The translations under genes and the position numbers were made by a program. Positions 7,007 through 35,478 of a stretch of 64,000 nucleotides of DNA are shown piece after piece. The notes beneath the pieces are model-generated. The model made no database searches. It was not told the origin of the DNA and was given only the letters and a program-made list of their open reading frames with translations. This DNA comes from Anaerolineales bacterium (lineage in GTDB: Bacteria > Chloroflexota > Anaerolineae > Anaerolineales > Villigracilaceae). The DNA lies in NCBI GenBank assembly GCA_013140605.1, contig JABFSL010000042.1, positions 31,168 to 95,167 of the forward strand. The letters run 5' to 3'. Positions within the stretch are counted from its first letter, which is position 1. Every line of letters starts with the position of its first letter.

Positions 7007-7744
7007 CTACCAACCTTCGGCAAGACGAGCCGCATGTTTTTCAGGCAGACCTGAAGAGCGGATGCGCTCCTGCACTTCGGCAATGTTGTACATCACACGG
7101 CGTGGAGTCCAGGTGTTTGCATCAGTATCGTAAATGGCGTATGCGGCGCGCGGGTCACGGTCTCGCGGCTGGCCGACCGAGCCTGGGTTCAGGATCAGTT
7201 TCGGGCGCAGGTTGATCGTTTTATCAGGTTTTGTTTGATCCAGGGTGACGCGGTCGCTTCTTGGATCCAAAGCAAACAGACATTGAATGTGAGAGTGCCC
7301 AACGAAACACCAGGGCGTGGTGAAATGGTCAAAGTTGATCCGCGCCGAAAGCGAGTTCAAAATATATTCCCACAACGGGTCGCGCGGGCTTCCATGCGCA
7401 AGCGTAGCGTCACCGCATACCTTTGTGTTGGAAGAAAGCGAGTTCAGATAATCCATGTTATCCGCAGTCATCACTTTTTCATGATGCATCAATGAACGGC
7501 GTGCGTCACCATTAAAAGTTTCGAACGGCATTTTGCCAATGACTGCCACGTCATGATTTCCAAGCATACAGGTAAGGTTTGGGATCTCCCGCACTTCCTC
7601 AACAACTGCGTTTGGGTCGGGGCCGTAGCCCACAAGATCTCCAAGACACCAGGTTTCATCCACCTGTCCGGCGTCTTTTAACACAGCCTGTAGCGCGGTG
7701 TAATTTGCATGTATATCCGATATGACCAAAACGCGCATGTTCAC
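7007..7744 (-). CDS. Calcineurin-like metallophosphoesterase
   Basis: SDIHAN, GDLVGYG, GNHD, HGS, GHSH and NPGSVGQPRD motifs. Confidence 0.92.
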   Translation of the reverse strand: MNMRVLVISDIHANYTALQAVLKDAGQVDETWCLGDLVGYGPDPNAVVEEVREIPNLTCMLGNHDVAVIGKMPFETFNGDARRSLMHHEKVMTADNMDYLNSLSSNTKVCGDATLAHGSPRDPLWEYILNSLSARINFDHFTTPWCFVGHSHIQCLFALDPRSDRVTLDQTKPDKTINLRPKLILNPGSVGQPRDRDPRAAYAIYDTDANTWTPRRVMYNIAEVQERIRSSGLPEKHAARLAEGW

Positions 7745-8946
7745 TCCAACAGCTTTGATATGTGTTCGATGATCTTTTCCGCCACTTCGATTTTACTCAT
7801 CAGCGGCAGCGTTTCCTTCGACCCATTTGCGAACAGGATCGTCACGCGATTGGTCTCCACCGCAAACCCCGCATCGTCAGCGGAAATATTATTCGCAACA
7901 ATAAAATCCAGATTTTTTGATTGCAGCTTTTCGGATGCGTTTTCGAGAAGGTCGCGACTCTCCGCCGCGAATCCTGCCACGACTTGAAAACGCTTCTTAC
8001 TTAACTGTGAGCTGGCAACTGTTTTAAGGATATCAGGCGCCGCTTCGAGTTTTACCTGCGGAATGCCGTCGCGCTTTTTCAATTTATCCTTTGCAGCCTG
8101 CACCGGGCGGAAGTCTGCCGCCGCCACCGCCATGATCAAAGCATCAGCGGATTCTTTCATCACCGCATTAAGCATTTCCTGCACGCTATTAGCTTTGATC
8201 ACGCGCGCACCCACAGGCGGAGTCAATGCTGTCGGCGCAGTGATCAGGCAAACGCCCGCGCCCGAATCGAGAGCTGCCTGGGCGAGCGCATATCCCTGCT
8301 TGCCGGAGGAATGATTCGTAATGACTCGCACCGGGTCGATCGCTTCCTGAGTCCCGCCCGCAGTGACAACGATCTTTTTACCCGCGAGTTTTCCATTCCT
8401 GCCAAGTATGATTCGAAGGTGACCGATAATTTCGGCAGGCTCGATCATTCGTCCCTTGCCTGTTAGCCCGGAAGCGAGATGCCCGTCAGCGGGACCAATA
8501 ATGATGGCGCCGCCTTCTCTAAGTTTAGTTAGATTTTCCTGCGTGGTGGGGTGATAGTACATACCGCCATCCATTGCGGGGGCGATCACCAACGGGCATT
8601 CCGCAGCCAGCGCTGTGACCGTGAGTAGATTATCCGCGAGGCCGTGTGCGAGCTTTGCGATGGTATGTGCTGTACATGGCGCGATGACCAGCAGGTCTGC
8701 TGTTTTTCCGAAACTGACATGCAGGACATGTGCTTCATTGCCCCACAGATCTTGTTCGACATATGCGCGGCGGCCAGTCACAGATTGGAAGGTAAGCGGT
8801 GTAACGAATTTTTCTCCCGCGCCTGTTATAAGAACGTCCACTTTTGCGCCTGCCTGTGCAAGCTTGGAAGCAACGTCAGCGGCTTTGTAACTTGCAATGG
8901 AGCCTGTCACGCCGAGTAGAATGTGTTTACCAGAGAATACGGACAT
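7741..8946 (-). CDS. coaBC: Bifunctional phosphopantothenoylcysteine decarboxylase/ligase
   Basis: GVTGSIASYKA, APAMDGGM, TAGGTQEAIDPVRVITNHSSGKQG and GFAAES motifs. Confidence 0.97.
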   Translation of the reverse strand: MSVFSGKHILLGVTGSIASYKAADVASKLAQAGAKVDVLITGAGEKFVTPLTFQSVTGRRAYVEQDLWGNEAHVLHVSFGKTADLLVIAPCTAHTIAKLAHGLADNLLTVTALAAECPLVIAPAMDGGMYYHPTTQENLTKLREGGAIIIGPADGHLASGLTGKGRMIEPAEIIGHLRIILGRNGKLAGKKIVVTAGGTQEAIDPVRVITNHSSGKQGYALAQAALDSGAGVCLITAPTALTPPVGARVIKANSVQEMLNAVMKESADALIMAVAAADFRPVQAAKDKLKKRDGIPQVKLEAAPDILKTVASSQLSKKRFQVVAGFAAESRDLLENASEKLQSKNLDFIVANNISADDAGFAVETNRVTILFANGSKETLPLMSKIEVAEKIIEHISKLLE

Positions 8947-8987
8947 ATGGGCTGATTATACTTCCAACTCAACTGGAAAATTGCCCC

Positions 8988-9016
8988 TTGACGCATTTGA
9001 GCGACGCGCATAGAAT
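8988..9016 (+). promoter_or_regulatory. Sigma70-type promoter of the aro operon
   Basis: TTGACG(8988)-17 nt-TAGAAT(9011). Confidence 0.75.
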
Positions 9017-9026
9017 AGCGCCCAAC

Positions 9027-9101
9027 ATGTTAACTACTGTCCGCTTTTATTTTGCGTATTACTTTAACGGCCTCCGCTCGGTTGCCGCTGGTTGCGCTTA
9101 A
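9027..9101 (+). CDS. Phe/Tyr-rich leader peptide MLTTVRFYFAYYFNGLRSVAAGCA (24 aa)
   Basis: 6 Phe/Tyr codons in 7 consecutive positions (9045-9065), lying between the promoter and a terminator. Confidence 0.8.
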   Translation: MLTTVRFYFAYYFNGLRSVAAGCA

Positions 9102-9124
9102 GTAGACAGAAAAAATCTGTATGC

Positions 9125-9158
9125 AAAAAGAGCGAGACCACACGGTCTCGCTCTTTTT
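9125..9158 (+). terminator. Attenuator terminator hairpin upstream of aroH
   Basis: aaaaagagcgagacc-acac-ggtctcgctcttttt. Confidence 0.8.
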
Positions 9159-9163
9159 ATTCC

Positions 9164-9200
9164 CCCTCACCCCAACCCCTCTCCCAAAAGGGGAGAGGGG
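9164..9200. repeat. CCCTCACCCC..CCCCTCTCCC..GGGAGAGGGG REP-like hairpin
   Basis: cccctctccc/gggagagggg stem just before the aroH RBS. Confidence 0.7.
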
Positions 9201-9215
9201 CTACAAGGAGCAATT

Positions 9216-9587
9216 ATGGCAATCCGTGGAATCCGTGGCGCGACAACCGTATCGGCAGATGAACCCGATCTAATTCTCGAAGCCACACGGGAATTGTTGG
9301 AAGCAATTTTGGCGGCAAATGAAAGCATGTTGCCTGAGGATGTAGGCAGCGCGCTTTTCACCGTGACTGACGATCTCGCCTCGACCTTCCCCGCGCAGGC
9401 GGCGAGACAAATGGGCTGGGGACTCGTCCCGATGATGTGCGCAAGGGAAATCCCAGTCCCTGGCAGTTTGCGGAAAGTCATCCGTGTACTTGTCCACTGG
9501 AATACGGAGATGCCGCAATCTGAAATCACGCACGTTTATTTACGCGATGCGGTAAAGTTGAGACCCGACTTGGTTGCCGCGCAATAA
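9216..9587 (+). CDS. aroH: Chorismate mutase, AroH type
   Basis: IRGIRGATTV, FTVTDDLASTFPAQAAR and YLRDAVKLRPDL motifs. Confidence 0.95.
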   Translation: MAIRGIRGATTVSADEPDLILEATRELLEAILAANESMLPEDVGSALFTVTDDLASTFPAQAARQMGWGLVPMMCAREIPVPGSLRKVIRVLVHWNTEMPQSEITHVYLRDAVKLRPDLVAAQ

Positions 9588-9591
9588 AACC

Positions 9592-9641
9592 AAGTCGAAA
9601 GTCAAAAGTCAATACGTGACCTTCGACTTTTGACCTTTGAC
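9592..9641. repeat. Inverted heptamer array (aagtcga/aagtcaa ... ccttcga/gaccttt)
   Basis: 7-nt periodic opposed halves right after the aroH stop. Confidence 0.75.
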
Positions 9642-9664
9642 AGGATTTTTAAGGAGAAGAACCT

Positions 9665-10723
9665 ATGATGATCATAATGAAAGCCAATGCCACGCCGCAG
9701 GAAGTGGAAGCGGTGATCGCACAAATCAAATCAATGGGACTCGCCGTCCATTTATCGCAGGGAGTCGAAGCGACGATTATCGGTGCGATCGGTGAGACAC
9801 ATAATATTCCCATGGAACGCTTCGAAGGCTTGGACGGCGTGGATATTGTCCAGCGTATCACCCAGCCGTACAAGCTCGCTTCACGACAATTCCACCCCGA
9901 AGATTCGATCATCCCATTGAGCGGATTCGCTGTCGGTGGAAATGAGATCGCCATCATTGCGGGACCATGCTCGGTGGAGAGTCGCTCACAGATCATTGAA
10001 ACAGCCATCGCTGTGAAAGAGGCGGGAGCGTCCGCTTTGCGCGGCGGAGTGTTCAAGCCGCGCACATCGCCGTATGCATTTCAAGGATTGGGCGAAGAAG
10101 GTCTTGAACTTCTCGCCGAGGCACGCGAGAAAACGGGCCTGCCCATCGTTGTTGAAATTATGTCGCAGGTGCAGTTGGATTTGATGGTGAAGTACGTGGA
10201 TGTGTTTCAAGTGGGCGCGCGCAATATGCAGAATTTCAATTTACTGCGCGCCATCGGTGAAACACGCACTGCGGTTCTGCTCAAGCGCGGACTTTCCGCT
10301 ACCATCGAAGAACTACTGATGTCTGCTGAATATATTCTGGCTGGGGGAAATCAACGTGTGATGTTGTGTGAGCGCGGAATCCGCACATTCGAAACATCCA
10401 CGCGTAACACTACTGATATCAATGCTGTTCCCGTTTTAAAACACTTAACTCATTTGCCCGTCATCCTTGACCCAAGCCACTCCACAGGCCACGCGGATTA
10501 TGTCGCCGCGATTGCGCGCGCTGGCATTGCCGCAGGCGCAGACGGACTAATTATCGAAGTTCATCCTGATCCTGCAAAAGCAGTTTCGGATGGCAAGCAA
10601 TCTCTCAAACCAGAAAAATTTGCCGAGATGGTCAAGCAGGTTGGTCAGATCGCGCAGATTATGGGACGCAGGCTCGCCGCTGTTCAAGGAAATGTTCAAC
10701 CGTTGAAGCAGGGGTGGGCGTAA
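9665..10723 (+). CDS. aroF: DAHP synthase type I-beta with N-terminal ACT-like domain, copy 1
   Basis: AGPCSVES, FKPRTSPYAFQG, GARNMQNF, LKRG, LCERGIRTF and DPSH motifs. Confidence 0.95.
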   Translation: MMIIMKANATPQEVEAVIAQIKSMGLAVHLSQGVEATIIGAIGETHNIPMERFEGLDGVDIVQRITQPYKLASRQFHPEDSIIPLSGFAVGGNEIAIIAGPCSVESRSQIIETAIAVKEAGASALRGGVFKPRTSPYAFQGLGEEGLELLAEAREKTGLPIVVEIMSQVQLDLMVKYVDVFQVGARNMQNFNLLRAIGETRTAVLLKRGLSATIEELLMSAEYILAGGNQRVMLCERGIRTFETSTRNTTDINAVPVLKHLTHLPVILDPSHSTGHADYVAAIARAGIAAGADGLIIEVHPDPAKAVSDGKQSLKPEKFAEMVKQVGQIAQIMGRRLAAVQGNVQPLKQGWA

Positions 10724-10731
10724 ATAAATTT

Positions 10732-10799
10732 GTAGGGGCGACCCTTGTGGTCGCCCTTGATTTACATAAATATTGGGCGGGGACGAGCCCCGCCCCTAC
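10732..10799. repeat. Paired GTAG-type REP units (REPIN-like) between the two aroF copies
   Basis: gtaggggcgacc..ggtcgccc and gggcggggac..ccccgcccctac. Confidence 0.8.
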
Positions 10800-10824
10800 A
10801 AAACATAAAAAAGGAAATATCACC

Positions 10825-11859
10825 ATGATGATCATCATGCACCCCGGTGCCCCCAGAGAACAAATAGACGCTGTCATTGCCGAAATTGAAAAACATAAAT
10901 TATCTTCCCATCCCATCTTTGGCGTTGAGCAAACCATCATCGGCGCAGTCGGCGACGGTCACTATGTTGCAAAGGAAATCTTTGAAGCATTGCCCGGCGT
11001 ATTGGAAGTTCAACGTATTTCCAAGCCTTACAAACTTGCCTCACGACAATTCCACGAACAGGATTCTATATTTCAACTCGACGGCTTCTCCGTTGGCGGC
11101 ACAGAAATCCCAATTATTGCAGGCCCGTGCTCGGTTGAGTCCCGTGCGCAGATTCTTGAGATCGCGCAGGCGGTCAAGGAAGCGGGCGCAAATGCTCTTC
11201 GCGGTGGCGTCTTCAAACCGCGCACGTCGCCATATGCCTTTCAAGGTCTCGGCGAAGAAGGTCTCGAATACATGGTTGAAGCCCGCGAAAAAACAGGCTT
11301 GCCCATCGTTGCCGAAGTAATGGCAGTTTCGCAAATCAAGATGATGGAAAAATATGTGGATGTTTTCCAACTCGGCGCGCGTAATATGCAAAACTTCAAT
11401 CTGCTGCGTGCCATTGGTGAAACACGTACTCCTGTCCTTTTCAAACGCGGCATGTCCGCCACCATCGAAGAAATGTTGATGGCAAGCGAGTACATCATCA
11501 GCGGCGGCAACACGCGCGTCATGTTGTGCGAGCGCGGCATCCGCACATTTGAAACTTCCACGCGCAACACCACTGACATCAATGCCATCCCCGTCCTCAA
11601 AAAACTTACGCACCTTCCCGTCATCCTCGATCCCTCGCACTCCACTGGCGACTCCGCGTATGTCTCCGCAATTGCAAAAGGCGGTGTTGCTGCTGGTGCC
11701 GATGGCATCATTGTTGAAGTGCATCAAGATCCCGCGCACGCAATTTCGGATGGCAAGCAATCTCTCACCCCTGAGGCATTTGCCAAAATGGTGAAGCAGA
11801 TCAAAGCGGTGGCAGAAGCGGTGGATCGTCGTTTGGTTCCGCAACATGCCACAGCCTGA
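10825..11859 (+). CDS. aroF: DAHP synthase type I-beta with ACT-like domain, copy 2
   Basis: same catalytic motifs as copy 1; start at 10825 after RBS aagga. Confidence 0.95.
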   Translation: MMIIMHPGAPREQIDAVIAEIEKHKLSSHPIFGVEQTIIGAVGDGHYVAKEIFEALPGVLEVQRISKPYKLASRQFHEQDSIFQLDGFSVGGTEIPIIAGPCSVESRAQILEIAQAVKEAGANALRGGVFKPRTSPYAFQGLGEEGLEYMVEAREKTGLPIVAEVMAVSQIKMMEKYVDVFQLGARNMQNFNLLRAIGETRTPVLFKRGMSATIEEMLMASEYIISGGNTRVMLCERGIRTFETSTRNTTDINAIPVLKKLTHLPVILDPSHSTGDSAYVSAIAKGGVAAGADGIIVEVHQDPAHAISDGKQSLTPEAFAKMVKQIKAVAEAVDRRLVPQHATA

Positions 11860-22670: not shown

Positions 22671-23870
22671 TTATTCAACATGGTCGAGATATTTTAATCC
22701 CGAACCTGTGTTGAAGATCACAACGCGCTCATCAGGTTCGATCCATTTTTGCGTGATGAGTTCCTTCAATGCGGCCAGTGTCGCGGCGCCTTCAGGAGCG
22801 GCGAAGATACCTTCCTGCACGGCCAGATTTTTCTGCGCTTCAAGGATGGCCGCATCGCTGACGGCTACTGCCGTCCCTGCGCTTTCGCGGATGTTTGCAA
22901 GAATGAGACGGTCTGCGAAACTCTTTGGCACGCGTAAACCGGATGCCATCGTTTGCGCACCCAGCCAAAAGTCACAGAATGATGCGCCTGAGTTGAATGC
23001 CTTGATGACCGGCGCGCATCCTTCCGCCTGTACCGATACCATGCGCGGACGTTTTGTATCGTTCAGCCAGCCAAGTTCTTCGAGTTCGTTAAAGGCCTTC
23101 CACATGCCGACGAGTCCCGTGCCGCCGCCGGTTGGGTAGATGATCACATCGGGCAGTGTCCAGTCGAAGGATTCTGCCAGCTCGTAGCCCATGATCTTTT
23201 TGCCTTCCATGCGATACGGCTCTTTGAAGGTTGAGACATCGAACCAGCCTTCGGCGTGGGCTTTTTCGCCAGCCATGCCGGCCGCGTCGCTGATGAGTCC
23301 ATCCACAAGGATAACTTCAGCGCCCGCAATTCGGCTTTCGATGATATTTGCGGTTGGCGTGTCTTTCGGCATATAGATTAGCGCCTGCATACCGGCACGC
23401 GCGGCGTAAGCCGCCATGGCACCGCCAGCGTTGCCAGCGGTGGGGATAATAACTTTTTTAATGCCCAGTTCCCTGGCCTTGGATATGGCGGCTGAAAGTC
23501 CGCGCGCTTTGAATGAGCCAGTGGGATTACTGCTTTCATCTTTAACAAAAAGATTGGAGAGCCCCAGATCGTTTCCTGTTCTGGGGAGATGCAAGATGGC
23601 TGTGTCGCCTTCGCCCAGCGTAACCATGTTTTGAGGTTCACGCACGGGCAACAGTTCATGCCAGCGCCACATGCCTTTGAGCCGCATATGGACTTCGTCG
23701 CGGTCTACATGCTGCTTTGCAGCAGCAAGATCGTAATTGACAATAAGGGGTGACTGGCAATTGGGACAATACGTATGAATTTCAGCGGCCGAGAATAATG
23801 TCCCGCAATCGGAGCATTGCAGTTCGGTCATGTATGAGATTTTTTCAGGGATGTTCACTTTGTTGGGCAT
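22671..23870 (-). CDS. Threonine synthase-like PLP enzyme (stand-alone paralog)
   Basis: N-terminal CxxC..CxxC, PTGSFKARG PLP lysine, TAGNAG, PTGGGTG; start set to ATG 23870 behind TGnTACAAT; substrate unverified. Confidence 0.85.
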   Translation of the reverse strand: MPNKVNIPEKISYMTELQCSDCGTLFSAAEIHTYCPNCQSPLIVNYDLAAAKQHVDRDEVHMRLKGMWRWHELLPVREPQNMVTLGEGDTAILHLPRTGNDLGLSNLFVKDESSNPTGSFKARGLSAAISKARELGIKKVIIPTAGNAGGAMAAYAARAGMQALIYMPKDTPTANIIESRIAGAEVILVDGLISDAAGMAGEKAHAEGWFDVSTFKEPYRMEGKKIMGYELAESFDWTLPDVIIYPTGGGTGLVGMWKAFNELEELGWLNDTKRPRMVSVQAEGCAPVIKAFNSGASFCDFWLGAQTMASGLRVPKSFADRLILANIRESAGTAVAVSDAAILEAQKNLAVQEGIFAAPEGAATLAALKELITQKWIEPDERVVIFNTGSGLKYLDHVE

Positions 23871-23900
23871 GGGATATTGTAGCATTTATGGTTATTGATT

Positions 23901-24290
<390 letters not shown>

Positions 24291-24301: not shown

Positions 24302-25945
24302 TTATGCTCCGTTCTTATCTTCAATGGTATGGATTAGTTGATCAACAAATTTTCGAGGCTGCAACGAGCCTTTTTGATACAAGGCTTCGATATTGCCGTT
24401 CAATCTTCTTCGTTCTTCAACGGTGATGTCTTTTGCGCTGACAACAACCACCGGAATATCCCTGGTGCGCGGATCGAGTTTGAGTTCCTCCACCAGGCCA
24501 AATCCATCCATGCCGGGCATGGTCAGGTCGGTGATGATAAGGTCGGGCAATTTTTGACGCGCCATTGCCAGTCCTTCCCAGCCGTCATTGGCATGATATA
24601 CCCGATAGGATTTTTTTCCTTCGAGCAGGCGGCGGATGAGCAAGGCATCGTCCGGGTTATCGTCAATCAATAGCACTGTGGTTGTCTTCTCATCCAGGTT
24701 TTCAAGCGCGGCTTCCAATCCTTCGCGCGGGGCGGGCGCTTGCGACTCGCTTAAGTGGACATCCACTGCAAATTGATCTTCGAGCACATGCTTTTCAACC
24801 GGGAAGGTATGTCCTGTACAATTGACCACCACAGTTTCATCTTTTCCAATAATGTCATTTCGAAGCATTTTTTCAAGGCCTGCAAATGCCACCGCTGTTG
24901 CCGGCTCCACAGCCATGCCTTCGCTTTTCGCAAGCGCACGCATGGATGCAAAGGCTTCAGCGTCTGTTACAGATTCCATGATGCCGCCAAATTTTTGCGT
25001 GAGATTCCACAGATAGGTGTACGATTTGCCCGGGTCGCCGGTGGAAAGAATAATGATGCGCGTATCGGGAATGACAGGTTCTGCAGTATCTTTGCCAGCT
25101 TTGAAGGCCTTCACCATAGGTGAACAACCTTCGGCCTGGATGACTGCCAGTTTGGGAACGCGTTCGATCAAACCCATTTTATGAAGTTCTGTAAATCCCT
25201 GATACACACCCAGCGGCCCCAATCCGCCGCTTACTGATTGGATATACCAATCCGGCGCTCTCCAGCCAAGCTGCTCCACGATCTCGTATGCGATGGTCTT
25301 CATGGATTCGCGGGCGGGGATGGAACTGGAGCCGCGGTCGAGCCACAAATGTTTTCTTTGGGCGAATTGGGATGCGATCTGTTTTGTCTGATCGTAATTG
25401 CCGCTGACTCGAATAACCTCCGCGCCGAAGAGAGCGGCTTCTCGCAGCTTTTCCTGCGGAACGAGGCTGGTCATAAAGACCCAGAGCTTGATCCCAGCCC
25501 GGGCACAGGCGGCGGCGTATGCGACAGCGGCATTGCCGGTCGAAGCGATGACTGCCTCGCGGATGCCGCCTTCATTCATTGCGGCGACAGCCACAGCGGC
25601 CTGACGGTCTTTGAAGGAACTGGTCGGCCCGTAGCGTTCATCCTTCAAGTAAACAGAATCATGCCCGAGCGCAGGGGCGAAGCGTTGCGACAGCCAGAGC
25701 GGAGTCCCGCCAGCGGGGTAGAGGTCCAAAGCGTTGAGATTGTTGAGCGGTAAGACATCCGAATAACGCCACATGTTGGCGGGGCGGTTGGGCAGGCCGC
25801 GCAAAATTTCGCGTTTGAATGCGGTGTAATCATAACGGGCTTCGAGCCATTGCGCGCCGCAGTGAACGCAGGTTGCGGGTATGAAGGCTTCGTAGGGTTG
25901 CTGCTTCCCGCAAATATTACATTCCAAAAATTTCGGTGTCGCCAT
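24302..25945 (-). CDS. Threonine synthase-like PLP enzyme fused to a C-terminal receiver domain
   Basis: CxxC..CxxC, PTSSFKDRQ, STGNAA, EPATA; then IDDNPDD..ITDLTMPGMDG..SAK..QKG; start moved from 26188 to 25945. Confidence 0.88.
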   Translation of the reverse strand: MATPKFLECNICGKQQPYEAFIPATCVHCGAQWLEARYDYTAFKREILRGLPNRPANMWRYSDVLPLNNLNALDLYPAGGTPLWLSQRFAPALGHDSVYLKDERYGPTSSFKDRQAAVAVAAMNEGGIREAVIASTGNAAVAYAAACARAGIKLWVFMTSLVPQEKLREAALFGAEVIRVSGNYDQTKQIASQFAQRKHLWLDRGSSSIPARESMKTIAYEIVEQLGWRAPDWYIQSVSGGLGPLGVYQGFTELHKMGLIERVPKLAVIQAEGCSPMVKAFKAGKDTAEPVIPDTRIIILSTGDPGKSYTYLWNLTQKFGGIMESVTDAEAFASMRALAKSEGMAVEPATAVAFAGLEKMLRNDIIGKDETVVVNCTGHTFPVEKHVLEDQFAVDVHLSESQAPAPREGLEAALENLDEKTTTVLLIDDNPDDALLIRRLLEGKKSYRVYHANDGWEGLAMARQKLPDLIITDLTMPGMDGFGLVEELKLDPRTRDIPVVVVSAKDITVEERRRLNGNIEALYQKGSLQPRKFVDQLIHTIEDKNGA

Positions 25946-25946
25946 T

Positions 25947-28739
25947 TTATTTTTCCGTTTTCTCGATCGGTTCAGCGAGTTTTGCTTCAAGCGGCAGTTC
26001 CACAAAGAAGGTACAGCCTTCGCCTGGGATGCCGGTACTTTCTGCCCAAATGTGACCGCCATGCATTTCCACGAGACGGCGGCTGATGGGCAGGCCGAGA
26101 CCTGTGCCGCCGGCTTTGCGTGTGGTGGATGAATCCACTTGTGTAAACTCCTGGAAGACCGCTTCCAATTTGTCGGTGGGGATGCCAATGCCGGTGTCGT
26201 GGACAGCGATCAAGGCATGCTCATTTTGTAATGAGGCGCTCAGGGAGATTTTGCCTTTCTCTGTAAACTTAATTGCGTTGTTGACGATGTTGATCATGAT
26301 CTGGCGCAGGCGGGTGCGGTCTGCAAATATTTCCAATTCCTGATCTGAATTGCTCTCGATAAACAGCGAGAGATTTTTTTCGCTTGCCAGCGTGGATGTG
26401 ATGCTGGTTACTTCTTCGAGGATTTCGTGAACCCTGAGTTTTTCAGGCGCCAGGTTCATCTTGCCTGATTCGATCTTGGCCATATCCAACACATCGTTGA
26501 TCAGGTGCAGGAGGTGTTGTCCATTTTTCTGGATCAACCCCAGGTCGTTGGCCATGTTTTCTGTCAGCGGGCCATCCAGTTCTTCGAGCATTACATCAGA
26601 GAAACCGAGGATGGAGTTGAGCGGTGTGCGTAATTCGTGTGACATGTTGGCGAGGAAGGATGACTTGAGGCGATCCAACTCGCGCAATTGAGTTACAGTT
26701 GCAGATTGTTCCATGTATAGACGGGCGTTTTGTAAAGCCACTGCCACTTGTGATGCAAGGGTGGTGTAGATGTTGGCATCTTCCGTGCTGAAATGCCCCA
26801 CTAAATCGGATTGGACATCGAACACACCGATAACCTTATCGCCTGAGATCATTGGCACAGCCATTTCTGAGCGGGTTTCAGGGAGAAATGGGTTGGGGAG
26901 AAAATCAGGGTCACTCCGTATATCATTCACGATGATGGCGCTGCGCGCGCGGGTGGCGCGTGCCATAAGGGATTTTTCATCGTCCATTTGAATGGAGTGA
27001 CCTGCGGCAACCATTTGCCTGCCGACTTCGCCCGCGCCTGCCGCGAGTAACAGCGTATTCCATGATTGATCGGCGAGATAGATGTGAGTATGGTAGATCT
27101 TGAAGCGTTCCTTTGTCAGGTCCACAACGGATTGCAGTAATTCATCCGGGTTCAACACGGTGGAGGCTGTTGAGCTAACGACGGCCACCGTTTCCAGTTG
27201 GTTCGCGCGCTGCGCCAAAATCGCTTCGTCACGCTTGCGCTGGGTAATGTCACGTTGGACGGCTACAAACTGGAGAATTTCTCCGCGTTCATCTGCAATA
27301 GGTGAGATGGTGAGTTGGGCGTTGTAAAAAGAGCCGTCTTTGTGACGATTTGTTACTTCACCGCTCCATGTCTGACCCGATAGAATGGTTCCCCACATAA
27401 CTTTATAGAAGTTTGCATCCTGTTCCCCGCTCTTAAGCAGGCGCGGGTTGCCTCCCATAGCCTCATTCACTGTATAGCCAGTGGTTTTCTCAAAAGCGGG
27501 ATTGGCGAATTGAATAGTGCCTGTGCGGTCGGTGATGACAACCATATCGGCTGTAGACTCGACCGCGCGAGCCAGACGGCGGGTTTCTGCCAGCGACTTC
27601 TGTGTCTCTTCGAACAAGCGCAGGTTTTCGAGGTGTACGCTGACCCGTTCCGCAATGGCGAGTGCCATCTCGGCGGCCTGCGGCGGAATTTCCTTCCAGC
27701 CTGCCACAGCCAATTGGCCGATGGTCTCACCGCGCACTGTGAGAGGCTGCGTAAAATTTACTTCCTGCGTAATGGGTGATTCTTTGATGGATGTGACTTG
27801 ATTGGAATCGTAAACAAAACCGAGGGTGGAAAGATCCTTGTTGGTGGTGTAGGTCTGCCAGCTTTCGTGGGTGAGGCGGCGGGTGGCTGATTCTGCTTCG
27901 GCGCGGGCGCGTGATGCATCTGCCAGCAGGCGGATGTTTTCCACTTGTTGCGCAACTTGTTTTGCGATTGCGCTGACCATTACCTTGTCGTCGCTTGTGA
28001 ATGGATGGGATGGGTCGGGTTCCAAATACAAGGTCCCGACATGTTCATCCATGACATTCACAGATTCGCGGAAACCTTCATCAGATTGCGGCTTTTCCAC
28101 ATCATAAGGTAAGACAGAGGCCTGATCGTAAGAATAGCCAACGCGTTCACTGTGATGAATCGCGTCGAGATAAGAATCCCAGTTTTCGTGCATGAAGCGG
28201 CGGGTGGCTGATTCTGCTTCGGCGCGGGCACGTTCCGTGGCGGTGAGCAGGCGCAGGTTCTGGATTTGAAGCGAAGCCTGTTGGGCAACGGCGTTGAGCA
28301 GGCTGGTTTCATCTTTTGTCCAAGGACGTTCAGACGGCGGTTCGATCTGCATTTCACCGATCAATTGTCCGCTGGCTGTTAGTGGAGCAGTGATGGCATC
28401 TGTCCCTTCGTTTGTTTCAGGTGACAGCAATTGAAGCGACTTCACTCCATCCTTGGAATATGAATAGCCCATATGCTCCTTCTCATAAAGCATGGGAGCT
28501 GTGGGACGCTGCGGCGTATCATTAATAATGGGTGCGTCTTCCTGTATGGCGGAGCGTTTTTCGCTTTCCAAAAACTGCGTTTCCAGTTCGCAAAGGCGTT
28601 TATATAACTCCTTGATTTCCGCATGAAATACAGATGGAGAAATGGACGGGTCGGCCTTGATACTTTCCATATCTGCGAAAAGCGCATCAAGCCGCTGACG
28701 AAATTGGTTGTTGAACATGCCTGCTATCTCCTGAACCAT
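25947..28739 (-). CDS. Soluble histidine kinase: three partial GAF-like units, PAS, GAF, HisKA, HATPase
   Basis: NMSHELRTPLNSI, NNAIKFT, DTGIGI and GGTGLGL motifs; PAS (ITDRTGTIQFANPAFE); no TM segment. Confidence 0.93.
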   Translation of the reverse strand: MVQEIAGMFNNQFRQRLDALFADMESIKADPSISPSVFHAEIKELYKRLCELETQFLESEKRSAIQEDAPIINDTPQRPTAPMLYEKEHMGYSYSKDGVKSLQLLSPETNEGTDAITAPLTASGQLIGEMQIEPPSERPWTKDETSLLNAVAQQASLQIQNLRLLTATERARAEAESATRRFMHENWDSYLDAIHHSERVGYSYDQASVLPYDVEKPQSDEGFRESVNVMDEHVGTLYLEPDPSHPFTSDDKVMVSAIAKQVAQQVENIRLLADASRARAEAESATRRLTHESWQTYTTNKDLSTLGFVYDSNQVTSIKESPITQEVNFTQPLTVRGETIGQLAVAGWKEIPPQAAEMALAIAERVSVHLENLRLFEETQKSLAETRRLARAVESTADMVVITDRTGTIQFANPAFEKTTGYTVNEAMGGNPRLLKSGEQDANFYKVMWGTILSGQTWSGEVTNRHKDGSFYNAQLTISPIADERGEILQFVAVQRDITQRKRDEAILAQRANQLETVAVVSSTASTVLNPDELLQSVVDLTKERFKIYHTHIYLADQSWNTLLLAAGAGEVGRQMVAAGHSIQMDDEKSLMARATRARSAIIVNDIRSDPDFLPNPFLPETRSEMAVPMISGDKVIGVFDVQSDLVGHFSTEDANIYTTLASQVAVALQNARLYMEQSATVTQLRELDRLKSSFLANMSHELRTPLNSILGFSDVMLEELDGPLTENMANDLGLIQKNGQHLLHLINDVLDMAKIESGKMNLAPEKLRVHEILEEVTSITSTLASEKNLSLFIESNSDQELEIFADRTRLRQIMINIVNNAIKFTEKGKISLSASLQNEHALIAVHDTGIGIPTDKLEAVFQEFTQVDSSTTRKAGGTGLGLPISRRLVEMHGGHIWAESTGIPGEGCTFFVELPLEAKLAEPIEKTEK

Positions 28740-28779: not shown

Positions 28780-31563
28780 TTAATTATTATGATCCTTCAT
28801 GCCTAACTGGGCGATGGTAAGCGGCGCGCCGAGGGCATGTCCCAATTCACGCGCTGCAATTTGAAGCACGGCTTCCACTGTGGTGGCGCTCTGGATCTTC
28901 TGGCTGATGGTGTTTAACATACTTTCACGTTCAGCCTGCTGCTGTGATTTGGAAAATGATTTGGCGTTCTGCAAAGCGGTGGATACCTGAGACGCAAGAG
29001 TGGTATAGATATTGGCATCCTCTTCCGAGAAGGCGTTGATGCGCTCCGATTGCACATCCAGCACACCCAGGATCTGATCGCCGATGTTCAATGGCACCGC
29101 CATTTCGGAAGCGGTATCAGGCAGAACCGGATTGGGCAGCCAGCCTGGCTCATTATGCACATCATTGACAATCACGGCTTGCCTGGTGCGGGCAGAGCGC
29201 GCCACAAGCGATTGCTCCTGCGCTATTGGAATAACCGCAGTGCCATCCGTGCCTTCATGTGGGTCGCCTTCCTTATAACCACAGGCGACAATCTTAAGCT
29301 CCGCTGTGTTTTCGTCATAGATAAAAATGTGGGCATGGTACAAGCCGAATTGACGCTGGGTCAAATGCACCACCGAGTGCAGCATTTTATCAACATCCAG
29401 TTCTCTGGATGAAACGGAACTGACCTCGGCAACCGCCGCGAGCTGGTGGGCGCGTTTATCGAGTTCGATCTCGCCGCGTTTGGTTTCTTCAAACAGGCGC
29501 AGGTTTTCGATATGGGCACCAAGGCGTTCGGCAACCGCATTGGCAAGTTCAAGGGATTCTGCATCATCAGATCCAAGGCCCTGAATAACGAGTTTGCCAA
29601 CGGTCTCATCATGGATTTTGAGCGGCAGGGTGGTGGAAGACTCTTCGGTCTGTTGATCTGCATTTTGATCGTATGGCCGCACTTCCTTCAAATCATATTT
29701 AAAGCTCAAGCCTTCACCGGCATTTGTCTCCACATAATCTTTCCAGCCTTCACGTGTAAGGCGGCGTGAGGCTTCTTCCGCCTCGAAACGATAACGTTCC
29801 GCGCTATCAAGCAGGCGCAGACTTTCGATCTGCTGTGCCACCTGACGCGCCACGATGTTGACCAGTTCGGAAGTGCGCGCAATCGGCGATTGGTTTTCCA
29901 TTTCCACAACTAAATTTCCGAGCGATTCACCAATGACCGCAATTGACGCAGTCAAAGTGTTATCGTTTATTTGCAATTGAGATTGTTCCACCGGGGTGAT
30001 TGGTGCGATCTTACTTTGCTCGTACACAAAACCGATCTCTTCGGGTTTATGTATGGCATCCAGGTAATCTTTCCAATTGGCGCGTGACTGGCGTTGAGCT
30101 TGAGATTCAACGTCAGCGCGGGCTTGTTCCGTCTCTGCAAGGAAGGTGGCGTTTTGGATGGCGATGGCTAATTGTCCCGCCAGAGCTTCAAACGCGGTTA
30201 ATTCTTCCTGATTCAACTTGTTGACTTCGTGGCTTTGCATATCCAGCACACCCACCACTCGTTCACCGATAATCAGCGGAACAGCCATTTCAGAACGGGT
30301 CTCTGGCAGGAGCGGATTTGGTTTGAAGGTGGTGCTGGCGCTGGTATTTGAGATAATCACAGAGCGTTTCTCGATTGCGGCCCGTCCGTTGATCGATGCG
30401 TTATTTAACGGTAGTTGGTGCGCACGCGCAACCAGTTCCGCGCCGACTGTTCCAGTACCAGATTGCAGAATCAGGGCGGTCCGACTCGGATTCGTCAAAT
30501 AGACTTGCACATAGTAAAGATCAAATCGTGAACGGATGAGTTCGGTGGCGTCATTTAACATAACATCCAGAGAACGTACTTGCGATACAGCGCGCGCTAC
30601 TTCGGCGGCGAGTTTAAGGCTATGGGTACCTTCTGCTACGCGTTGTTCCAGTGTGCCAAACAGATTCTTCAACTGTAAAGCCATTGAGTTGAAGGCCGCG
30701 CCAAGCACGGAAACTTCGTCGCGACCAGCCACATCTATGAACTGGTCCAGATTACCCTGCTGCAGGGATGCGGTGCTGTGGGTTAGGATTCTCAAGCGGC
30801 TGGTAATCGAAACCACGATCAGGTAGCTTAGAAAGAGGCCGAGAACCAAACCAATGACCAGAACGATGAAGCCGGTAAGGAGCGCTTGTTGGAACGAGGC
30901 TTGCGCCAATGTGTTTGAGAATTCAGCATAAGTATTGTTAACATCGATCAACGTCTGAAGGCTGGCGCGGGCAGCTTGAAGGTTTTGGAGCGCCTCATTC
31001 ACAAGGGCATCATCCGGGGTTCCTGTTTGAACTGATACCAGATAATTTTCAATGGCGCTCTTATATACACTGAACGCTGTATGGAATGATTTCAGAGCCG
31101 CAAGTTCCTGTTGCTGTAAGCCGAGCTTGCCTGCGTCCCGTAAGGATTGCGTGAATTCAGGGCTGACGGTTGTTACCCATTCAGTGTCATAGCGGGCGAT
31201 GGTATCAGCTGTCAATTTGTTATCTGACTGAATTGCATCAATGTTCTCCGCTGCTTCCTGTTCTGTGGCTTCATCAAGGTTCTCGATCTGATATTGCGCA
31301 TCTGCCAGGGCGGTGTCTGCGTGATTAATGGCGACAATCGGGATCAACATGAAGTCATAGATATTGGAGAGTTGATAACGCATGGATTGCAGGCCGCTAT
31401 AAGCGGCGCCCGCAACACCCAGTGTGCCTAGAAAAAGTACAAATGCCATTAAGGCCATTTTCCAGGCAAGGGAGATATTTCCAAGAAATCCCAAAAGGAA
31501 CAACTGTTGGCCTGCTGGTGATTTGGAAGCTTGTCCGGTCTTGAATAACTGATTAGTGGTCAT
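28780..31563 (-). CDS. Membrane sensor without output domain: 4HB-like periplasmic domain, HAMP, GAF, two partial GAF units, GAF, partial-GAF tail
   Basis: 2 TM segments; HAMP (RDEVSVLGAAFNSM); LPETRSEMAVP GAFs; no H-box, GGDEF or MCP signalling domain. Confidence 0.85.
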   Translation of the reverse strand: MTTNQLFKTGQASKSPAGQQLFLLGFLGNISLAWKMALMAFVLFLGTLGVAGAAYSGLQSMRYQLSNIYDFMLIPIVAINHADTALADAQYQIENLDEATEQEAAENIDAIQSDNKLTADTIARYDTEWVTTVSPEFTQSLRDAGKLGLQQQELAALKSFHTAFSVYKSAIENYLVSVQTGTPDDALVNEALQNLQAARASLQTLIDVNNTYAEFSNTLAQASFQQALLTGFIVLVIGLVLGLFLSYLIVVSITSRLRILTHSTASLQQGNLDQFIDVAGRDEVSVLGAAFNSMALQLKNLFGTLEQRVAEGTHSLKLAAEVARAVSQVRSLDVMLNDATELIRSRFDLYYVQVYLTNPSRTALILQSGTGTVGAELVARAHQLPLNNASINGRAAIEKRSVIISNTSASTTFKPNPLLPETRSEMAVPLIIGERVVGVLDMQSHEVNKLNQEELTAFEALAGQLAIAIQNATFLAETEQARADVESQAQRQSRANWKDYLDAIHKPEEIGFVYEQSKIAPITPVEQSQLQINDNTLTASIAVIGESLGNLVVEMENQSPIARTSELVNIVARQVAQQIESLRLLDSAERYRFEAEEASRRLTREGWKDYVETNAGEGLSFKYDLKEVRPYDQNADQQTEESSTTLPLKIHDETVGKLVIQGLGSDDAESLELANAVAERLGAHIENLRLFEETKRGEIELDKRAHQLAAVAEVSSVSSRELDVDKMLHSVVHLTQRQFGLYHAHIFIYDENTAELKIVACGYKEGDPHEGTDGTAVIPIAQEQSLVARSARTRQAVIVNDVHNEPGWLPNPVLPDTASEMAVPLNIGDQILGVLDVQSERINAFSEEDANIYTTLASQVSTALQNAKSFSKSQQQAERESMLNTISQKIQSATTVEAVLQIAARELGHALGAPLTIAQLGMKDHNN

Positions 31564-31596
31564 AATTTGTTACCTCGGCTAACTGGCAATAATTTA

Positions 31597-33474
31597 TCAG
31601 TTGAGATTGGAGTCATTGCCAACATCCTGACGGCTGGCAATACTGGCACTGACACGAGATGCTCCGAGCGCCAGCCCAATTTCGCGGATGGCTGTTTGCA
31701 ACGTATCGTCCACTGTAGTGGCTCGCTGTATCTTCTGGCCGATGGCATTGACCAGAGACTCAAGATCTGCTTGCGCTTTGGATTGCTCAAACGCGCGCAC
31801 GTTTTGAATGGATGTGGATACCTGCGAAGCCAGTGTGACCTGGATATTGATATCTGAATCGGTGAAGCGGCCAACTTGATCCGATTGCACATCGAAGACG
31901 CCAATCACCTTTCCACCGACGATCATGGGCACAGCCAGTTCTGAGCGGGTGTTTGGGAGCAGGGCATTGGGCAGGAAGTCTGCCGCCTGTGTTACATCAT
32001 TGACGGTAACGCCTTTTCGTTCGCGGGCAGCGCGGGCTACCAGTGATTGTTCGCGGTTGAGCGGGATGGAGAGTCCCTTTGCCATCATTTGACGTCCCGC
32101 TTCGCCCGCGCCTGAAGCCAGCACCAGATTTTCGCCGGACTCATCCAATAGATAGATGTGAGAGTGATATAAGTTGAAGCGTTCTTTTGAGAGGTTCACC
32201 ACTTCCTGTAAGAGTTTTTCGCTTTCCAGAATTGTGGCGGTCGCGGTTCCCACTTCAGCCACTGTCGCGAGTTCCGTGGCGCGGCGACGAACTTCTTCGA
32301 ATGCCTGTTGCAGGCGGGAGGTCATGGAGTTGAACGTTTGCGCCAGGAGGCCAACCTCGTCACCGGAAGAAACTTCAGCCTGTACATCGAAGTTGCCCGA
32401 GGCGATCTGTTCAGCGGTGTTTGTCAACGATGTGACTGGCCGGGTAATTTGTCGTGATAGTGCGATTGAAACAATAATGGTGAGGGCCAGAACGACCATG
32501 ATCGTAATAATTGAATATGTAAAGGTTTGGGTACTGGTTGTTTGAGCAGTACTAATATCCTCAGCCGCGAGTTGTTCACCCAATGCTTCGATCTTTGTCG
32601 ATAGCGGCTCAATCTCGCGGGCGGCAGCGATCATCGCCGCGTCGTATTCAGCGATTTCCCTGTCCTTGGTCACGAGCACATCGAAGGCCGTTTGGTAGGT
32701 ACCGGCCAGGTTTCTTAGCTCGGTCTTTTCGGCGACTTGGAGCAGGTCGGATGCAGTCGCTTGGTTTTTGAACTGGGTGACCAATGTATGAACATCATCA
32801 ATATATCCTTGATCCTTACGCGCCAGATAATCCTTTTCATTACGACGGATTTGCAACAGGGTAATTTCCAGATTTTCCAATCCTGCCTGATCGGAGATTT
32901 TAACTTCAATATCATGCGCCACATTACGCACGTCACCCAAAAAGCCGGTATTTTCATCTTCACCATATTGCCTGGAGACTTCAACGAGTGTGAGGAAGCT
33001 CTGATTGTATTTATCAGTGAGTTGGGTTAGTGAAGCGATATCAGCCTCATATTGCGCCTGGGTCATATCACCTGTCGAAACAGTCGCCGCTAAAGGTCCA
33101 AAGGGAGCCAGTAATTTAATGTGTTCGTGCATCAAGGCAATATTTTCGTTGTAAGGAATCACATAGTTGGTGTAGGCCGTATCATATCCTTCGTTTTGCC
33201 AGCGCAGAATAAAGTTTTTCTCATAACGGCGGGCTTGCAGCAAGTAGATTTGCAATTCGTCCGATAAATTTTGAACCTGGCCGCCTTGTGACAGAGCGTG
33301 TTCATAAGTGGTCTGTACTTGATTTAACCCCCGCAGAGTGACGCCAGCAATAATCAGCGCAAAAACGAACATGACACTGAAAGCCAGCATCAATTTAAGC
33401 GAGAGGCGAAGGTCACCCCAGAAGCCAAAGTGCTTCTCTGATGAAATCGAATTAGAAGTTGAGGTTATGTTCAT
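31597..33474 (-). CDS. Membrane sensor without output domain: chemoreceptor-like helical periplasmic domain, HAMP, GAF, partial-GAF tail
   Basis: two LQARRYEKNF/LQIRRNEKDY helical modules; DEVGLLAQTFNSM HAMP; one full GAF. Confidence 0.85.
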   Translation of the reverse strand: MNITSTSNSISSEKHFGFWGDLRLSLKLMLAFSVMFVFALIIAGVTLRGLNQVQTTYEHALSQGGQVQNLSDELQIYLLQARRYEKNFILRWQNEGYDTAYTNYVIPYNENIALMHEHIKLLAPFGPLAATVSTGDMTQAQYEADIASLTQLTDKYNQSFLTLVEVSRQYGEDENTGFLGDVRNVAHDIEVKISDQAGLENLEITLLQIRRNEKDYLARKDQGYIDDVHTLVTQFKNQATASDLLQVAEKTELRNLAGTYQTAFDVLVTKDREIAEYDAAMIAAAREIEPLSTKIEALGEQLAAEDISTAQTTSTQTFTYSIITIMVVLALTIIVSIALSRQITRPVTSLTNTAEQIASGNFDVQAEVSSGDEVGLLAQTFNSMTSRLQQAFEEVRRRATELATVAEVGTATATILESEKLLQEVVNLSKERFNLYHSHIYLLDESGENLVLASGAGEAGRQMMAKGLSIPLNREQSLVARAARERKGVTVNDVTQAADFLPNALLPNTRSELAVPMIVGGKVIGVFDVQSDQVGRFTDSDINIQVTLASQVSTSIQNVRAFEQSKAQADLESLVNAIGQKIQRATTVDDTLQTAIREIGLALGASRVSASIASRQDVGNDSNLN

Positions 33475-33492
33475 TTTTTGCTCCGGAACCCA

Positions 33493-35478
33493 TTAGTTGC
33501 TTTTGTGCTCATCGGCCAGCACTTCGGGATCAAGCGCGACCATGGTGTGCCGCATCCCCAGCGCGTGACCGAGTTCGCGAGCCGCAGTCTGCAGCGCCGC
33601 TTCGATGGTTGGCGCGTTTTGGATTTTCTGAGTAATCAAGTTGATGGCTTCCTGCTGGGCAGCGCGTTTGCGGTTGAGTTCCTCCAAGCGGCGGCGCTCA
33701 GTAACATCCTGATTTGCGCCATACCAGCGGATAATCTTTCCATCCTTATCACGCTCTACATTAATGTTTACTGTAATGTAGCCTAGTTCACCGTCTGAAA
33801 AAATGATACGGTGTTCCAGTGCCGTGTGGAGGTGGCGTTCTTTGGAGTCCATAACTTTTTGAATCTCACCCCCTACAAGCGCTGCATCATCGGGGTGGAC
33901 AAAATTCCGTGCATAGTCAGCAGAGGATATTTTGTACCCGCCAACCTTTTCGGCAGTGGTGCGGAAAATCGAATAGAACTGATCGTTGAAGGTAAAGAGA
34001 TCTTTCTCCACATCGTATTCCCAGTTGGCAAGGCGGGCGATCTTGAGCGCATCGGACAAAAGAACCTGACTACGTTGGATTTCCGTGTACGACTGCGCAT
34101 TTTGCACGGCAATAGCAACCTGGTTCGCGATGGATTGCAGTGAGTCAACATCCTCCTGCTTTAGGCCGTCAATAATATTGTGTTGCACATCCAACACGCC
34201 CAGAACTTCATCCCCGATGGAGATCGGAATTGCTGTTTCGGATTTGGTATCAGGCAGCAACTGGTTGGGCAGCCAGTCGGGGTTTTGAGCCGTATCCGAT
34301 ACCAGAATCGGCTGGTTGCTGTCTGCCGCACGACCTACAAGGCCGCGGCCTTTCGGGACTTTATGCTCTTTTGCCAGCATCGTTGCACCGGCTTCCCCTG
34401 TGCCGCCCGCCATAACCAGATTTTCATTAGCTTCATCGTAAAAGTAGATTTGAGTATGATAGTAGCCGAAGGCATTGTTTACCTGATTCACCACCTCGAT
34501 CACCAGTTCCTTCCGATTAAGAATTGTGGAAAGACGACGGCTTACTTGAGTGGATGTGGCAAGCGCTTTGGTGCGGTCTGCCACGCGTTGTTCCAACCCG
34601 CTGAGGATATCTTTCAGTTGCGTGATCATGCTGTTGAATGAGCGGGCGAGCATGCCAATTTCATCAGTGCTTGTGGCATCAGCATAAGCGTCGAGATTCC
34701 CTTTGGCAATTTGATTGGCGGTCAGAGCTAGTTGACTAACTGGTGTTACCACTGAGCGAACGATGAAAAAGCCCAGAGTGATTGTGATTAAAACGGTTGC
34801 TATGATTAACGTGATAAGAAACGTTATGGAACGGTTGATTAAGGACTGGACATCCGTTTCCTTTTTTTGGATCTCCACGTGTTGTAATTGAACTGCCCGG
34901 TCAATGGCGGAACGGTGAGATTCGTAATCTGGTGTGAGTATCTCATCAAAAATTTTATCGGCTTCCTGAAGTTTGTCCGCTCGAATGGCTGGTATCAATT
35001 GATTATTGACAACTTCAAAGAAATTTTTAGCAGGCAGGTAGGAGTCAATAAGGAGCGCCTGCTCAATATCCTTGTTTTCAATTTCTTCAGAAGCCAGTGT
35101 TTCGACCCAGTAGGCATGCCGCGCCTTATACTCATTTTGCAGCACGGGTATTTTTTCGATCAAACTGTCCACTGATGCCGTGTTCCCCTCCTTGGCGGCT
35201 TCCAATAATAGCGATGTTGTGAGATATGACTCAATGATGTAGGCCGGGGGCGGCAAAATATCGGCCACTAATTCTTGATTCTGTGTAAGCTGTTTATACA
35301 GTGGACCATTAACCTGTACCGTGCTCATTGTATTAAAAGCAAAAGCTGCAAAGGTACCCAAACCAACCACACTGATCGCTATTAATGTGGATAATTTGAT
35401 TCCGACGCGTAAGTTTGAAAAAAAGGGAAATAATCTTGGACGCGGGTTGCCGGATGAATTAAGGTCAGGTGTTTTCAT
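33493..35478 (-). CDS. Membrane sensor without output domain: MCP-like ligand-binding domain, HAMP, GAF, PAS/PAC, partial-GAF tail
   Basis: [25 protein letters not shown]-type head; [15 protein letters not shown]; WEYD..HPDD PAS_3. Confidence 0.85.

Follow-up and report, generated by a model that had tools for sequence, protein, structure and literature searches.

A threonine-synthase-like PLP enzyme with a C-terminal receiver domain in Chloroflexota: a candidate enzyme-type response regulator

The fused gene and its product

The subject of this study is a gene in a 64,000-nucleotide stretch of DNA from an Anaerolineales bacterium of the phylum Chloroflexota (GenBank assembly GCA_013140605.1, contig JABFSL010000042.1, positions 31,168 to 95,167 of the forward strand). 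This whole stretch is called the window below, and coordinates given without a prefix are positions within it. The gene lies at 24302..25945 on the minus strand and encodes a protein of 547 amino acids (aa), in which a pyridoxal 5'-phosphate (PLP) enzyme resembling threonine synthase (ThrC) is followed by a C-terminal receiver (REC) domain. The original prediction, which had been made from the DNA letters, placed a ThrC-like core and a receiver in one reading frame, and the translation bears this out as a single continuous open reading frame (ORF) with 547 codons, from the ATG at 25945-25943 to the TAA at 24304-24302. The frame is present where it was expected, but its strand is minus; read on the plus strand, the same interval is full of stops. 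It was also proposed that the gene starts one nucleotide past the stop of a kinase gene, and this is indeed the case: the kinase TAA occupies 25949-25947 and the single base A at 25946 lies between the two genes. A longer ORF starts with TTG and reaches to 26188, but it overlaps the kinase gene and its beginning is unlike the N-termini of the homologues (MAxP...), so that it was dismissed as a product of the ORF listing.

Both halves of the protein are recognised by Pfam with scores far beyond chance. The PALP family, the catalytic domain of fold-type II PLP enzymes, matches residues 78-378 (24812..25714, minus strand) with 236 bits (E 5.8e-70), and Response_reg matches residues 424-507 with 62.4 bits against a cut-off of 30.2 (E 5.3e-17); PALP is the only Pfam domain found besides the receiver. 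The details read earlier from the sequence were recovered in the translation. At the N-terminus there is a four-cysteine zinc ribbon (C9, C12, C26 and C29; 25859..25921, minus strand), and the PLP lysine is kept as K112 (codon 25610-25612) in the motif SFKDR, where it aligns on K61 of the threonine synthase structure 1UIM. The linker VHLSESQAPAPREGLEAALENLDEK, about 25 residues long, is found as quoted and corresponds to residues 396-420 (24686..24760, minus strand); it contains a conserved short helix and is predicted with low confidence. The receiver, residues 421-545 (24311..24685, minus strand), is intact and C-terminal, with the acidic pair D428/D429, the phospho-acceptor D473 (codon 24527-24529) in the motif ITDLTMPG, S503 and K525, the last being part of a Lys-Gly pair where Lys-Pro is usual. 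The Pfam match to this domain ends at profile position 81 of 111. Since residues 422-546 form a complete (beta-alpha)5 receiver with five strand-helix pairs in both AlphaFold models, we regard the domain as not truncated and its C-terminal third as divergent.

The residues on which either activity would depend are intact throughout the family. K112 is found in 213 of 213 members, as are S135 and N138 of the STGN motif, while T136 is found in 212 and each of the four ribbon cysteines in 211-213. In the receiver, D428 is kept in 204 members (with glutamate in a further 7), D429 in 211, D473 in 212, serine or threonine at position 503 in 212 and K525 in 210. Conservation is not confined to the active sites. 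In a set of 73 sequences with 40-86% identity to the window protein, the linker residue G409 never varies and P406, L410, A413 and L414 show at least 90% conservation, and the same set keeps L436, R439 and L441 in helix alpha1, the helix at which receivers usually dock to their kinase. T508, E511, L515, Q524, K525 and G526 of the alpha4-beta5 region are conserved as well, also across paralogues of about 50% identity; this face normally serves receivers for output or dimerisation. The pattern fits a receiver that would signal through protein contact, whichever the contact.

Distribution of the fusion

Could the fusion be an accident of sequencing, either a mis-assembly or a frameshift that merged a ThrC gene with a neighbouring receiver gene? 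The window genome is a draft in 132 contigs, and we found no support for this explanation. The domain-architecture check suggested in the original prediction, here a search of 5.8 billion proteins, returned PALP together with Response_reg in more than 120 protein clusters at 84-99% identity. These proteins, 546-572 aa long, come from NCBI, JGI, ENA and Logan assemblies, which are independent sources, and some of them lie on contigs longer than 4 Mb; full-length homologues are present in hundreds of assemblies. Within the family to which the window genome belongs, 107 of 121 genomes carry at least one fused gene. Relatives at 63% identity are encoded by the cultured strains Herpetosiphon geysericola DSM 7119 and H. 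giganteus DSM 589, and the conserved residues inside the linker also speak against a chance junction. The fusion is neither an artefact nor a singleton, and an origin by faulty assembly or frameshift appears extremely improbable.

Relatives of the fused protein are encoded at no fewer than 599 loci in species-representative genomes. The best 80 of these all belong to Chloroflexota (Anaerolineales including Candidatus Villigracilis, Thermoflexales and Herpetosiphon), except for one 1.6-kb contig labelled Pseudomonadota. Three tiers can be distinguished. Orthologues have about 66-88% identity, the Herpetosiphon proteins have 63%, and the members of a second fused paralogue group, which often occurs alongside the first tier in the same genome, have 45-54%. 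A fused orthologue at 76% identity or more is present in 48 of the 121 same-family genomes. The family is abundant yet phylogenetically narrow, since clustering at 50% identity leaves only about 6 full-length representatives. In the window genome itself the second fused paralogue is apparently missing, the search of same-family genomes having given one match only. Some members of the family carry two C-terminal REC domains (ThrC-REC-REC, 708-715 aa), for example the protein encoded at L026:7672-10110 on the minus strand and the proteins P0123 and P0124.

Gene neighbourhood

The fused gene is part of an apparent operon on the minus strand, in the order three HAMP-GAF sensors, kinase, fused gene, lone REC and canonical ThrC. 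The histidine kinase, presumably the cognate one, lies 1 nt before the fused gene at 25947..28739 (minus strand); it has 930 aa and the Pfam architecture PAS-GAF-HisKA-HATPase_c, and it lacks a receiver of its own. Upstream of it, 28780..35478 (minus strand) encodes three membrane sensors with HAMP and GAF domains and no output domain, of which only the first protein also matches 4HB_MCP_1. The gene that begins 11 nt downstream of the fused gene, at 23901..24290 (minus strand) and with an AGGAG ribosome-binding site, encodes a stand-alone DivK-like receiver of 129 aa (Response_reg, 92.8 bits). A further 15 nt downstream, at 22671..23885 (minus strand), follows a canonical zinc-ribbon ThrC of 404 aa, which scores 574.7 bits with NF006050 (cut-off 303).

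Gene order was compared over 76 related loci, with denominators of 75, 72 and 62 depending on the neighbour. A homologous kinase stands directly upstream of the fused gene in 73 of 75 loci, and the pairing of kinase and enzyme holds in 14 of 14 loci that cover all three tiers. The lone REC is directly downstream in 59 of 72, canonical ThrC is found within three genes downstream in 37 of 62, and HAMP-GAF genes precede the kinase in most. This order, together with the 1-nt gap in the window, supports the presumption that the kinase and the fused receiver are cognate partners in phosphotransfer.

Every locus examined has a second receiver in addition to the kinase core and the receiver linked to the enzyme. 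This second receiver is the lone REC gene in the 63-88% identity tiers, while the second paralogue group has a hybrid kinase with its own receiver or receivers and no lone REC; of the four kinases scanned, those of the 45-52% tier carry a fused REC and the one from the 85% tier carries none. The last REC of the second-group kinases is similar over its full length to the receiver that is joined to the enzyme (32-42% identity). That the lone REC is the split-off counterpart of this kinase receiver was considered and is unsupported, the two being only 25-31% identical.

The second paralogue group (loci L023-L032) has a module of its own, composed of HAMP-GAF sensors, a ParA/MinD-like ATPase, a hybrid kinase with one or two receivers, the fused enzyme and an EamA/DMT transporter; an example is L023:4413-5201, 5167-8484, 8503-10155 and 10196-11143. 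The ATPase is found upstream of the kinase in 6 of 10 loci of this group and the EamA-family transporter downstream in 7 of 10. Elsewhere the module varies in other ways. In some orthologous loci an enzyme-type response regulator follows the lone REC (L041:10077-11306 and L096:9949-11163), and by eye these two are a REC-HD-GYP protein (HHEKWDGSGYP motif) and a REC joined to a class III nucleotide cyclase, which suggests that one kinase module can feed several enzymatic outputs. A GNAT-type acetyltransferase is encoded near the module in Herpetosiphon (L021:1538-2449, Pfam) and, judged by eye, in three Anaerolineales loci (L036:10449-11348, L044:10469-11365 and L103:10428-11336). The Herpetosiphon locus has no separate HAMP-GAF sensors; instead, L021:2615-8248 encodes one kinase of 1877 aa with dCache, HAMP, GAF, PAS, GAF, HisKA and HATPase domains, apparently a fusion of what are separate sensors and a separate kinase in Anaerolineales.

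The constant presence of two receivers per kinase raises the question of which of them is the output. Perhaps the PLP domain is an input and its receiver the effector, so that the protein would act as a metabolite-gated phosphate sink which sets the flow to the lone DivK-like receiver, the real output. Several observations agree with this: no HPt domain was found in the kinases scanned with Pfam, no DNA-binding output was found in the window module by ORF list and Pfam, the enzyme-linked receiver is C-terminal as in hybrid kinases, and DivK, which the lone REC resembles, acts through partner binding. Moreover, the AlphaFold models contain no docked arrangement suggesting that the receiver occludes the active site. 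On the other hand, the catalytic apparatus, including the STGN loop, E213-x-M-K-T and the TGDPG motif, is conserved to nearly 100% over paralogues of about 50% identity, which goes beyond what PLP binding needs, and the EamA exporter that follows the paralogue gene fits a product which is made and exported better than a sensor. We hold the sink to be an unlikely explanation.

The neighbouring canonical ThrC deserves separate comment. Besides the fused gene, the window genome has two canonical zinc-ribbon ThrCs above cut-off, the neighbour and a gene on contig C51 (C51:44115-45383; 422 aa, zinc ribbon, TIGR00260 177 bits). We take the latter to be the probable housekeeping enzyme, since almost all genomes of the family encode an unfused ThrC that is 34-39% identical to the neighbour type; the C51 gene adjoins a xanthine-dehydrogenase-like gene and lies outside a hom/thrB operon. 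A ThrC of the neighbour type is present in 33 of 48 genomes with a fused orthologue versus 45 of 73 without, so that there is no association in presence and the neighbour was rejected as an obligate partner. Adjacency alone is conserved: in 31 of the 33 same-family genomes that hold both genes they lie side by side. As the genomes sampled belong to one family, this may be inherited gene order. A functional link between the two enzymes via a common pool of O-phosphohomoserine is possible.

The catalytic domain and its relation to threonine synthase

The closest solved relatives of the catalytic domain include the threonine synthases 1UIM, 2ZSJ and 2D1F, with 1UIM closest by sequence (2e-40), and a Foldseek search gave 2D1F, 6CGQ and 1UIM with TM-scores of about 0.8 normalised to the target. 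Source annotations label the homologues threonine synthase. Nevertheless, the fused protein stays under every NCBIfam ThrC equivalog cut-off, with 250.2 bits against 303 for NF006050, 162.6 against 167.1 for TIGR00260 and 186 against 421 for NF004170; since these curated cut-offs are unmet, we did not class it as a ThrC equivalog. Nor does it approach cysteate synthase (TIGR03844, 118.6 bits against 324.9).

The differences reach into the active site. In the Thermus enzyme, K61, T85, N154, S155 and R160 are the active-site residues with which the fused protein was compared. The canonical loop N-S-x-N-P-x-R-x-E-G reads G-S-S-S-I-P-A-R-E-S in the fused protein; over the longer substrate-phosphate loop, N-x-x-N-P-x-R-x-E-G-x-K-T reads R-G-S-S-S-I-P-A-R-E-S-M-K-T, and the Asn, the Ser and the E-G pair are replaced. 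In the second paralogue group the loop Arg has become Val, Ile or Lys, with another basic residue five positions earlier. A comparison with 55 canonical zinc-ribbon ThrCs gave about 26 positions at which the fused family has a different fixed residue, and several of these are in active-site motifs: R104 stands for G/T/S just before the lysine loop and Q115 for G/A directly after K-D-R, M215 lies in E-x-M-K-T, S239 and P244 in the PLP-phosphate loop, and I297, T302, D304, G306 and Y309 in the T-G-D-P-G segment, which stands for I-G-N-P; T159 belongs to these positions too.

In a maximum-likelihood tree, all fused proteins and one unfused protein form a single clade (SH-aLRT, the Shimodaira-Hasegawa-like approximate likelihood ratio test, 99), which is nested in a 29-row clade of unfused ThrC-like proteins (SH-aLRT 98); the two canonical ThrCs of the window genome are in other clades. 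From this single nested clade it follows that the fusion arose once, in a ThrC lineage that was already divergent, and was then duplicated. The unfused relatives adjoin genes for biosynthetic-looking enzymes at three loci (an ATP-grasp ligase; a radical SAM/SPASM protein, TauE and an Fe-dependent alcohol dehydrogenase; an epimerase and a methyltransferase), and one relative, P0130, lies among housekeeping genes; neither hom nor thrB was found beside them at the four contexts examined. As these contexts come from single short contigs, we treat them as a weak hint.

One of these contigs has a gene set of its own interest. On the metagenome contig L115 (218-6140), the unfused P0137 lies between a 619-aa protein, for which Pfam gave no match, and the radical SAM/SPASM protein, a TauE-family anion exporter and the Fe-dependent alcohol dehydrogenase, and the set may be a small biosynthetic cluster. 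A different elaboration of the ThrC scaffold was seen in P0201, a zinc-ribbon ThrC with a C-terminal LeuA allosteric (dimerisation) domain (Pfam PALP and LeuA_dimer, the latter with 95.9 bits); P0206 has a similar ThrC-LeuA architecture by alignment.

Is the fused protein then a threonine synthase at all? It might be a genuine isozyme which converts O-phosphohomoserine to threonine, with an activity tuned by the receiver, so that together with the downstream canonical ThrC it would adjust the supply of threonine to a signal. The sequence and fold matches, all best with threonine synthases, the source annotations, the retained PLP lysine, STGN loop and TGH motif, and the adjacency of the two genes would all suit such an enzyme. 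They are set against the failure to reach any curated ThrC cut-off, the replacement of N154, S155 and E-G with the further loss of the Arg in the second paralogue group, and the large set of positions fixed differently from canonical enzymes. In addition, the genome already has two ThrCs above cut-off, the presence of the neighbour type is unlinked to that of the fused gene, and the closest unfused relatives lie outside hom/thrB contexts. To us a true isozyme seems doubtful. We think that the catalytic domain is a neofunctionalised ThrC paralogue and not a housekeeping threonine synthase, and, all this considered, a chemistry other than plain threonine synthesis is somewhat favoured.

Discussion

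Since the fusion is real and is shared by hundreds of genomes in Chloroflexota, an amino-acid enzyme is probably the direct target of a two-component signal in these bacteria. The reading that we prefer, with a probability of about 0.5, is that the protein is an enzyme-type response regulator: the kinase would phosphorylate D473 and thereby alter catalysis by a neofunctionalised member of the ThrC clade, with the DivK-like receiver serving as a competitor or in feedback. The events might be ordered as follows. The PAS-GAF kinase, presumably co-transcribed with the fused gene, would probably combine the inputs of the HAMP-GAF membrane sensors encoded upstream and pass phosphate to D473 of the C-terminal receiver. 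Phosphorylation would change the activity of the attached PLP enzyme, and a likely route is that the receiver, via its conserved alpha4-beta5 face, associates differently with either another subunit or the catalytic domain. Threonine synthases are dimers which open and close upon substrate binding, and ThrC can be switched allosterically, as in the plant enzyme activated by S-adenosylmethionine. The adjacent lone receiver may compete for the kinase or feed back on it. As to the chemistry, a beta- or gamma-replacement or an elimination is most likely, with an O-activated amino acid (for example O-phosphohomoserine or O-phosphoserine) as the substrate, and the product could be something other than threonine, or additional to it.

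Several points weigh against this reading. Two AlphaFold runs, with 11 and 73 sequences, gave no confident arrangement of the two domains (predicted template modelling score, pTM, 0.65-0.67), and the predicted local distance difference test (pLDDT) of the linker is about 27-44. In the first model pLDDT is under 50 throughout residues 378-420, and in the second throughout 380-385 and 387-420. Both domains were themselves modelled well: in the second run, values of 80-96 were obtained for most of the PLP domain and of 74-89 for the first half of the receiver. Any path from D473 to the active site is thus our inference. The other points concern the enzyme, and the first two would also favour a threonine synthase isozyme: the TIGR00260 cut-off is missed by only 4.5 bits, and R212 persists in the orthologue group of the window, one position off the phosphate-binding Arg of ThrC (R160). 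The contexts of the unfused relatives were read on single short contigs. Lastly, canonical ThrC is found downstream in about 60% of loci, which could point to threonine metabolism.

The outputs of two-component systems are almost always transcription factors or one of a few enzyme types (methylesterase, cyclic-di-GMP/cAMP enzymes, phosphatases). In accordance with the original prediction, which knew of no characterised PLP synthase output, our full-text literature searches gave no paper that describes such a fusion, and a search on Herpetosiphon and threonine synthase gave no description of it either; a bare listing in Galperin's response-regulator census is possible. Enzymatic response regulators as such are already known, and as far as our searches go, a fold-type II PLP partner with a C-terminal receiver lies outside the described types. 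If our preferred reading is true, a PLP amino-acid enzyme under phospho-control would let a signal reach metabolism within seconds and without transcription, and a new reaction would be found within the threonine-synthase scaffold. For pathway reconstruction, the threonine synthase label in public records is probably wrong. The cultured Herpetosiphon strains (DSM 589 and DSM 7119) and the abundance of the fusion in an Anaerolineales family make a bench study feasible.

A bolder picture can be drawn, which we offer as speculation and consider rather improbable as a whole. The Chloroflexota fusions might be an unrecognised class of two-component output, in which the kinase directly gates a dedicated PLP enzyme whose product is a non-proteinogenic amino acid or an amino-acid derivative; in the EamA-adjacent paralogue group this product would be exported, and the DivK-like receiver would set the threshold of the switch. 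If this is true, the exported product would be a signal-controlled amino-acid messenger or a public good for filamentous bacteria.

Comparison with known systems

The nearest known enzymes are the threonine synthases (EC 4.2.3.1; 1UIM/1V7C from Thermus thermophilus, 2ZSJ from Aquifex and 2D1F from M. tuberculosis; NF006050/PRK08197). The fused protein shares with them the fold-type II PALP domain, a four-Cys ribbon of the PRK08197 type, the SFKDR lysine, the STGN loop and the TGH motif. Unlike them it falls under the family cut-offs, has an altered NPxRxEG loop, ends in a receiver and is encoded in a signalling operon rather than beside hom/thrB. That this scaffold can be re-purposed to another replacement on a phospho-amino acid is known from cysteate synthase (TIGR03844; CapA2, PDB 9K3C), which is a detectable relative (7.7e-14), although that enzyme has no receiver domain and the window protein lies outside the cysteate synthase clade.

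A PLP enzyme with a receiver-fold domain has been described in another fold type. Rv2531c of M. tuberculosis is an amino-acid decarboxylase of the AAT fold with a receiver-like domain in an N-terminal or central position (PMC12329521). Decarboxylases of this type differ from the window protein in belonging to PLP fold-type I rather than II, and the passages of that report examined describe neither a cognate kinase nor phosphorylation (PMC12329521). The plant threonine synthase (Arabidopsis, 1E5X/2C2B), of which 2C2B is among the Foldseek matches of the fused protein, offers a further parallel, being a ThrC-family enzyme with an added regulatory element. In the plant enzyme S-adenosylmethionine at the dimer interface and an N-terminal extension regulate activity, rather than a phospho-receiver.

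Known enzymatic response regulators include the CheB, PleD/WspR, RpfG and PP2C types, of which CheB (REC-methylesterase) and PleD likewise combine a phospho-acceptor receiver with an enzyme in one polypeptide. In the putative response regulator described here, the receiver is C-terminal rather than N-terminal and the partner is a PLP enzyme that would act on small amino acids, rather than a methylesterase or a cyclic-nucleotide enzyme; of the described output families methylesterase, GGDEF, EAL, HD-GYP and PP2C none is found in it, PALP being all that Pfam gives besides the receiver. In Caulobacter, DivK and PleD (REC-REC-GGDEF) are encoded together and both are phosphorylated by DivJ/PleC. 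The lone REC of the window has DivK as its best solved match (6.6e-24) and is also close to the first receiver of PleD (PleD REC1), which in turn is the best match of the fused REC. For this reason the DivJ/PleC-DivK-PleD system is the best analogy to the module: in both, a single-domain DivK-like receiver is encoded together with an enzyme-linked one, and in the window the kinase gene is adjacent as well.

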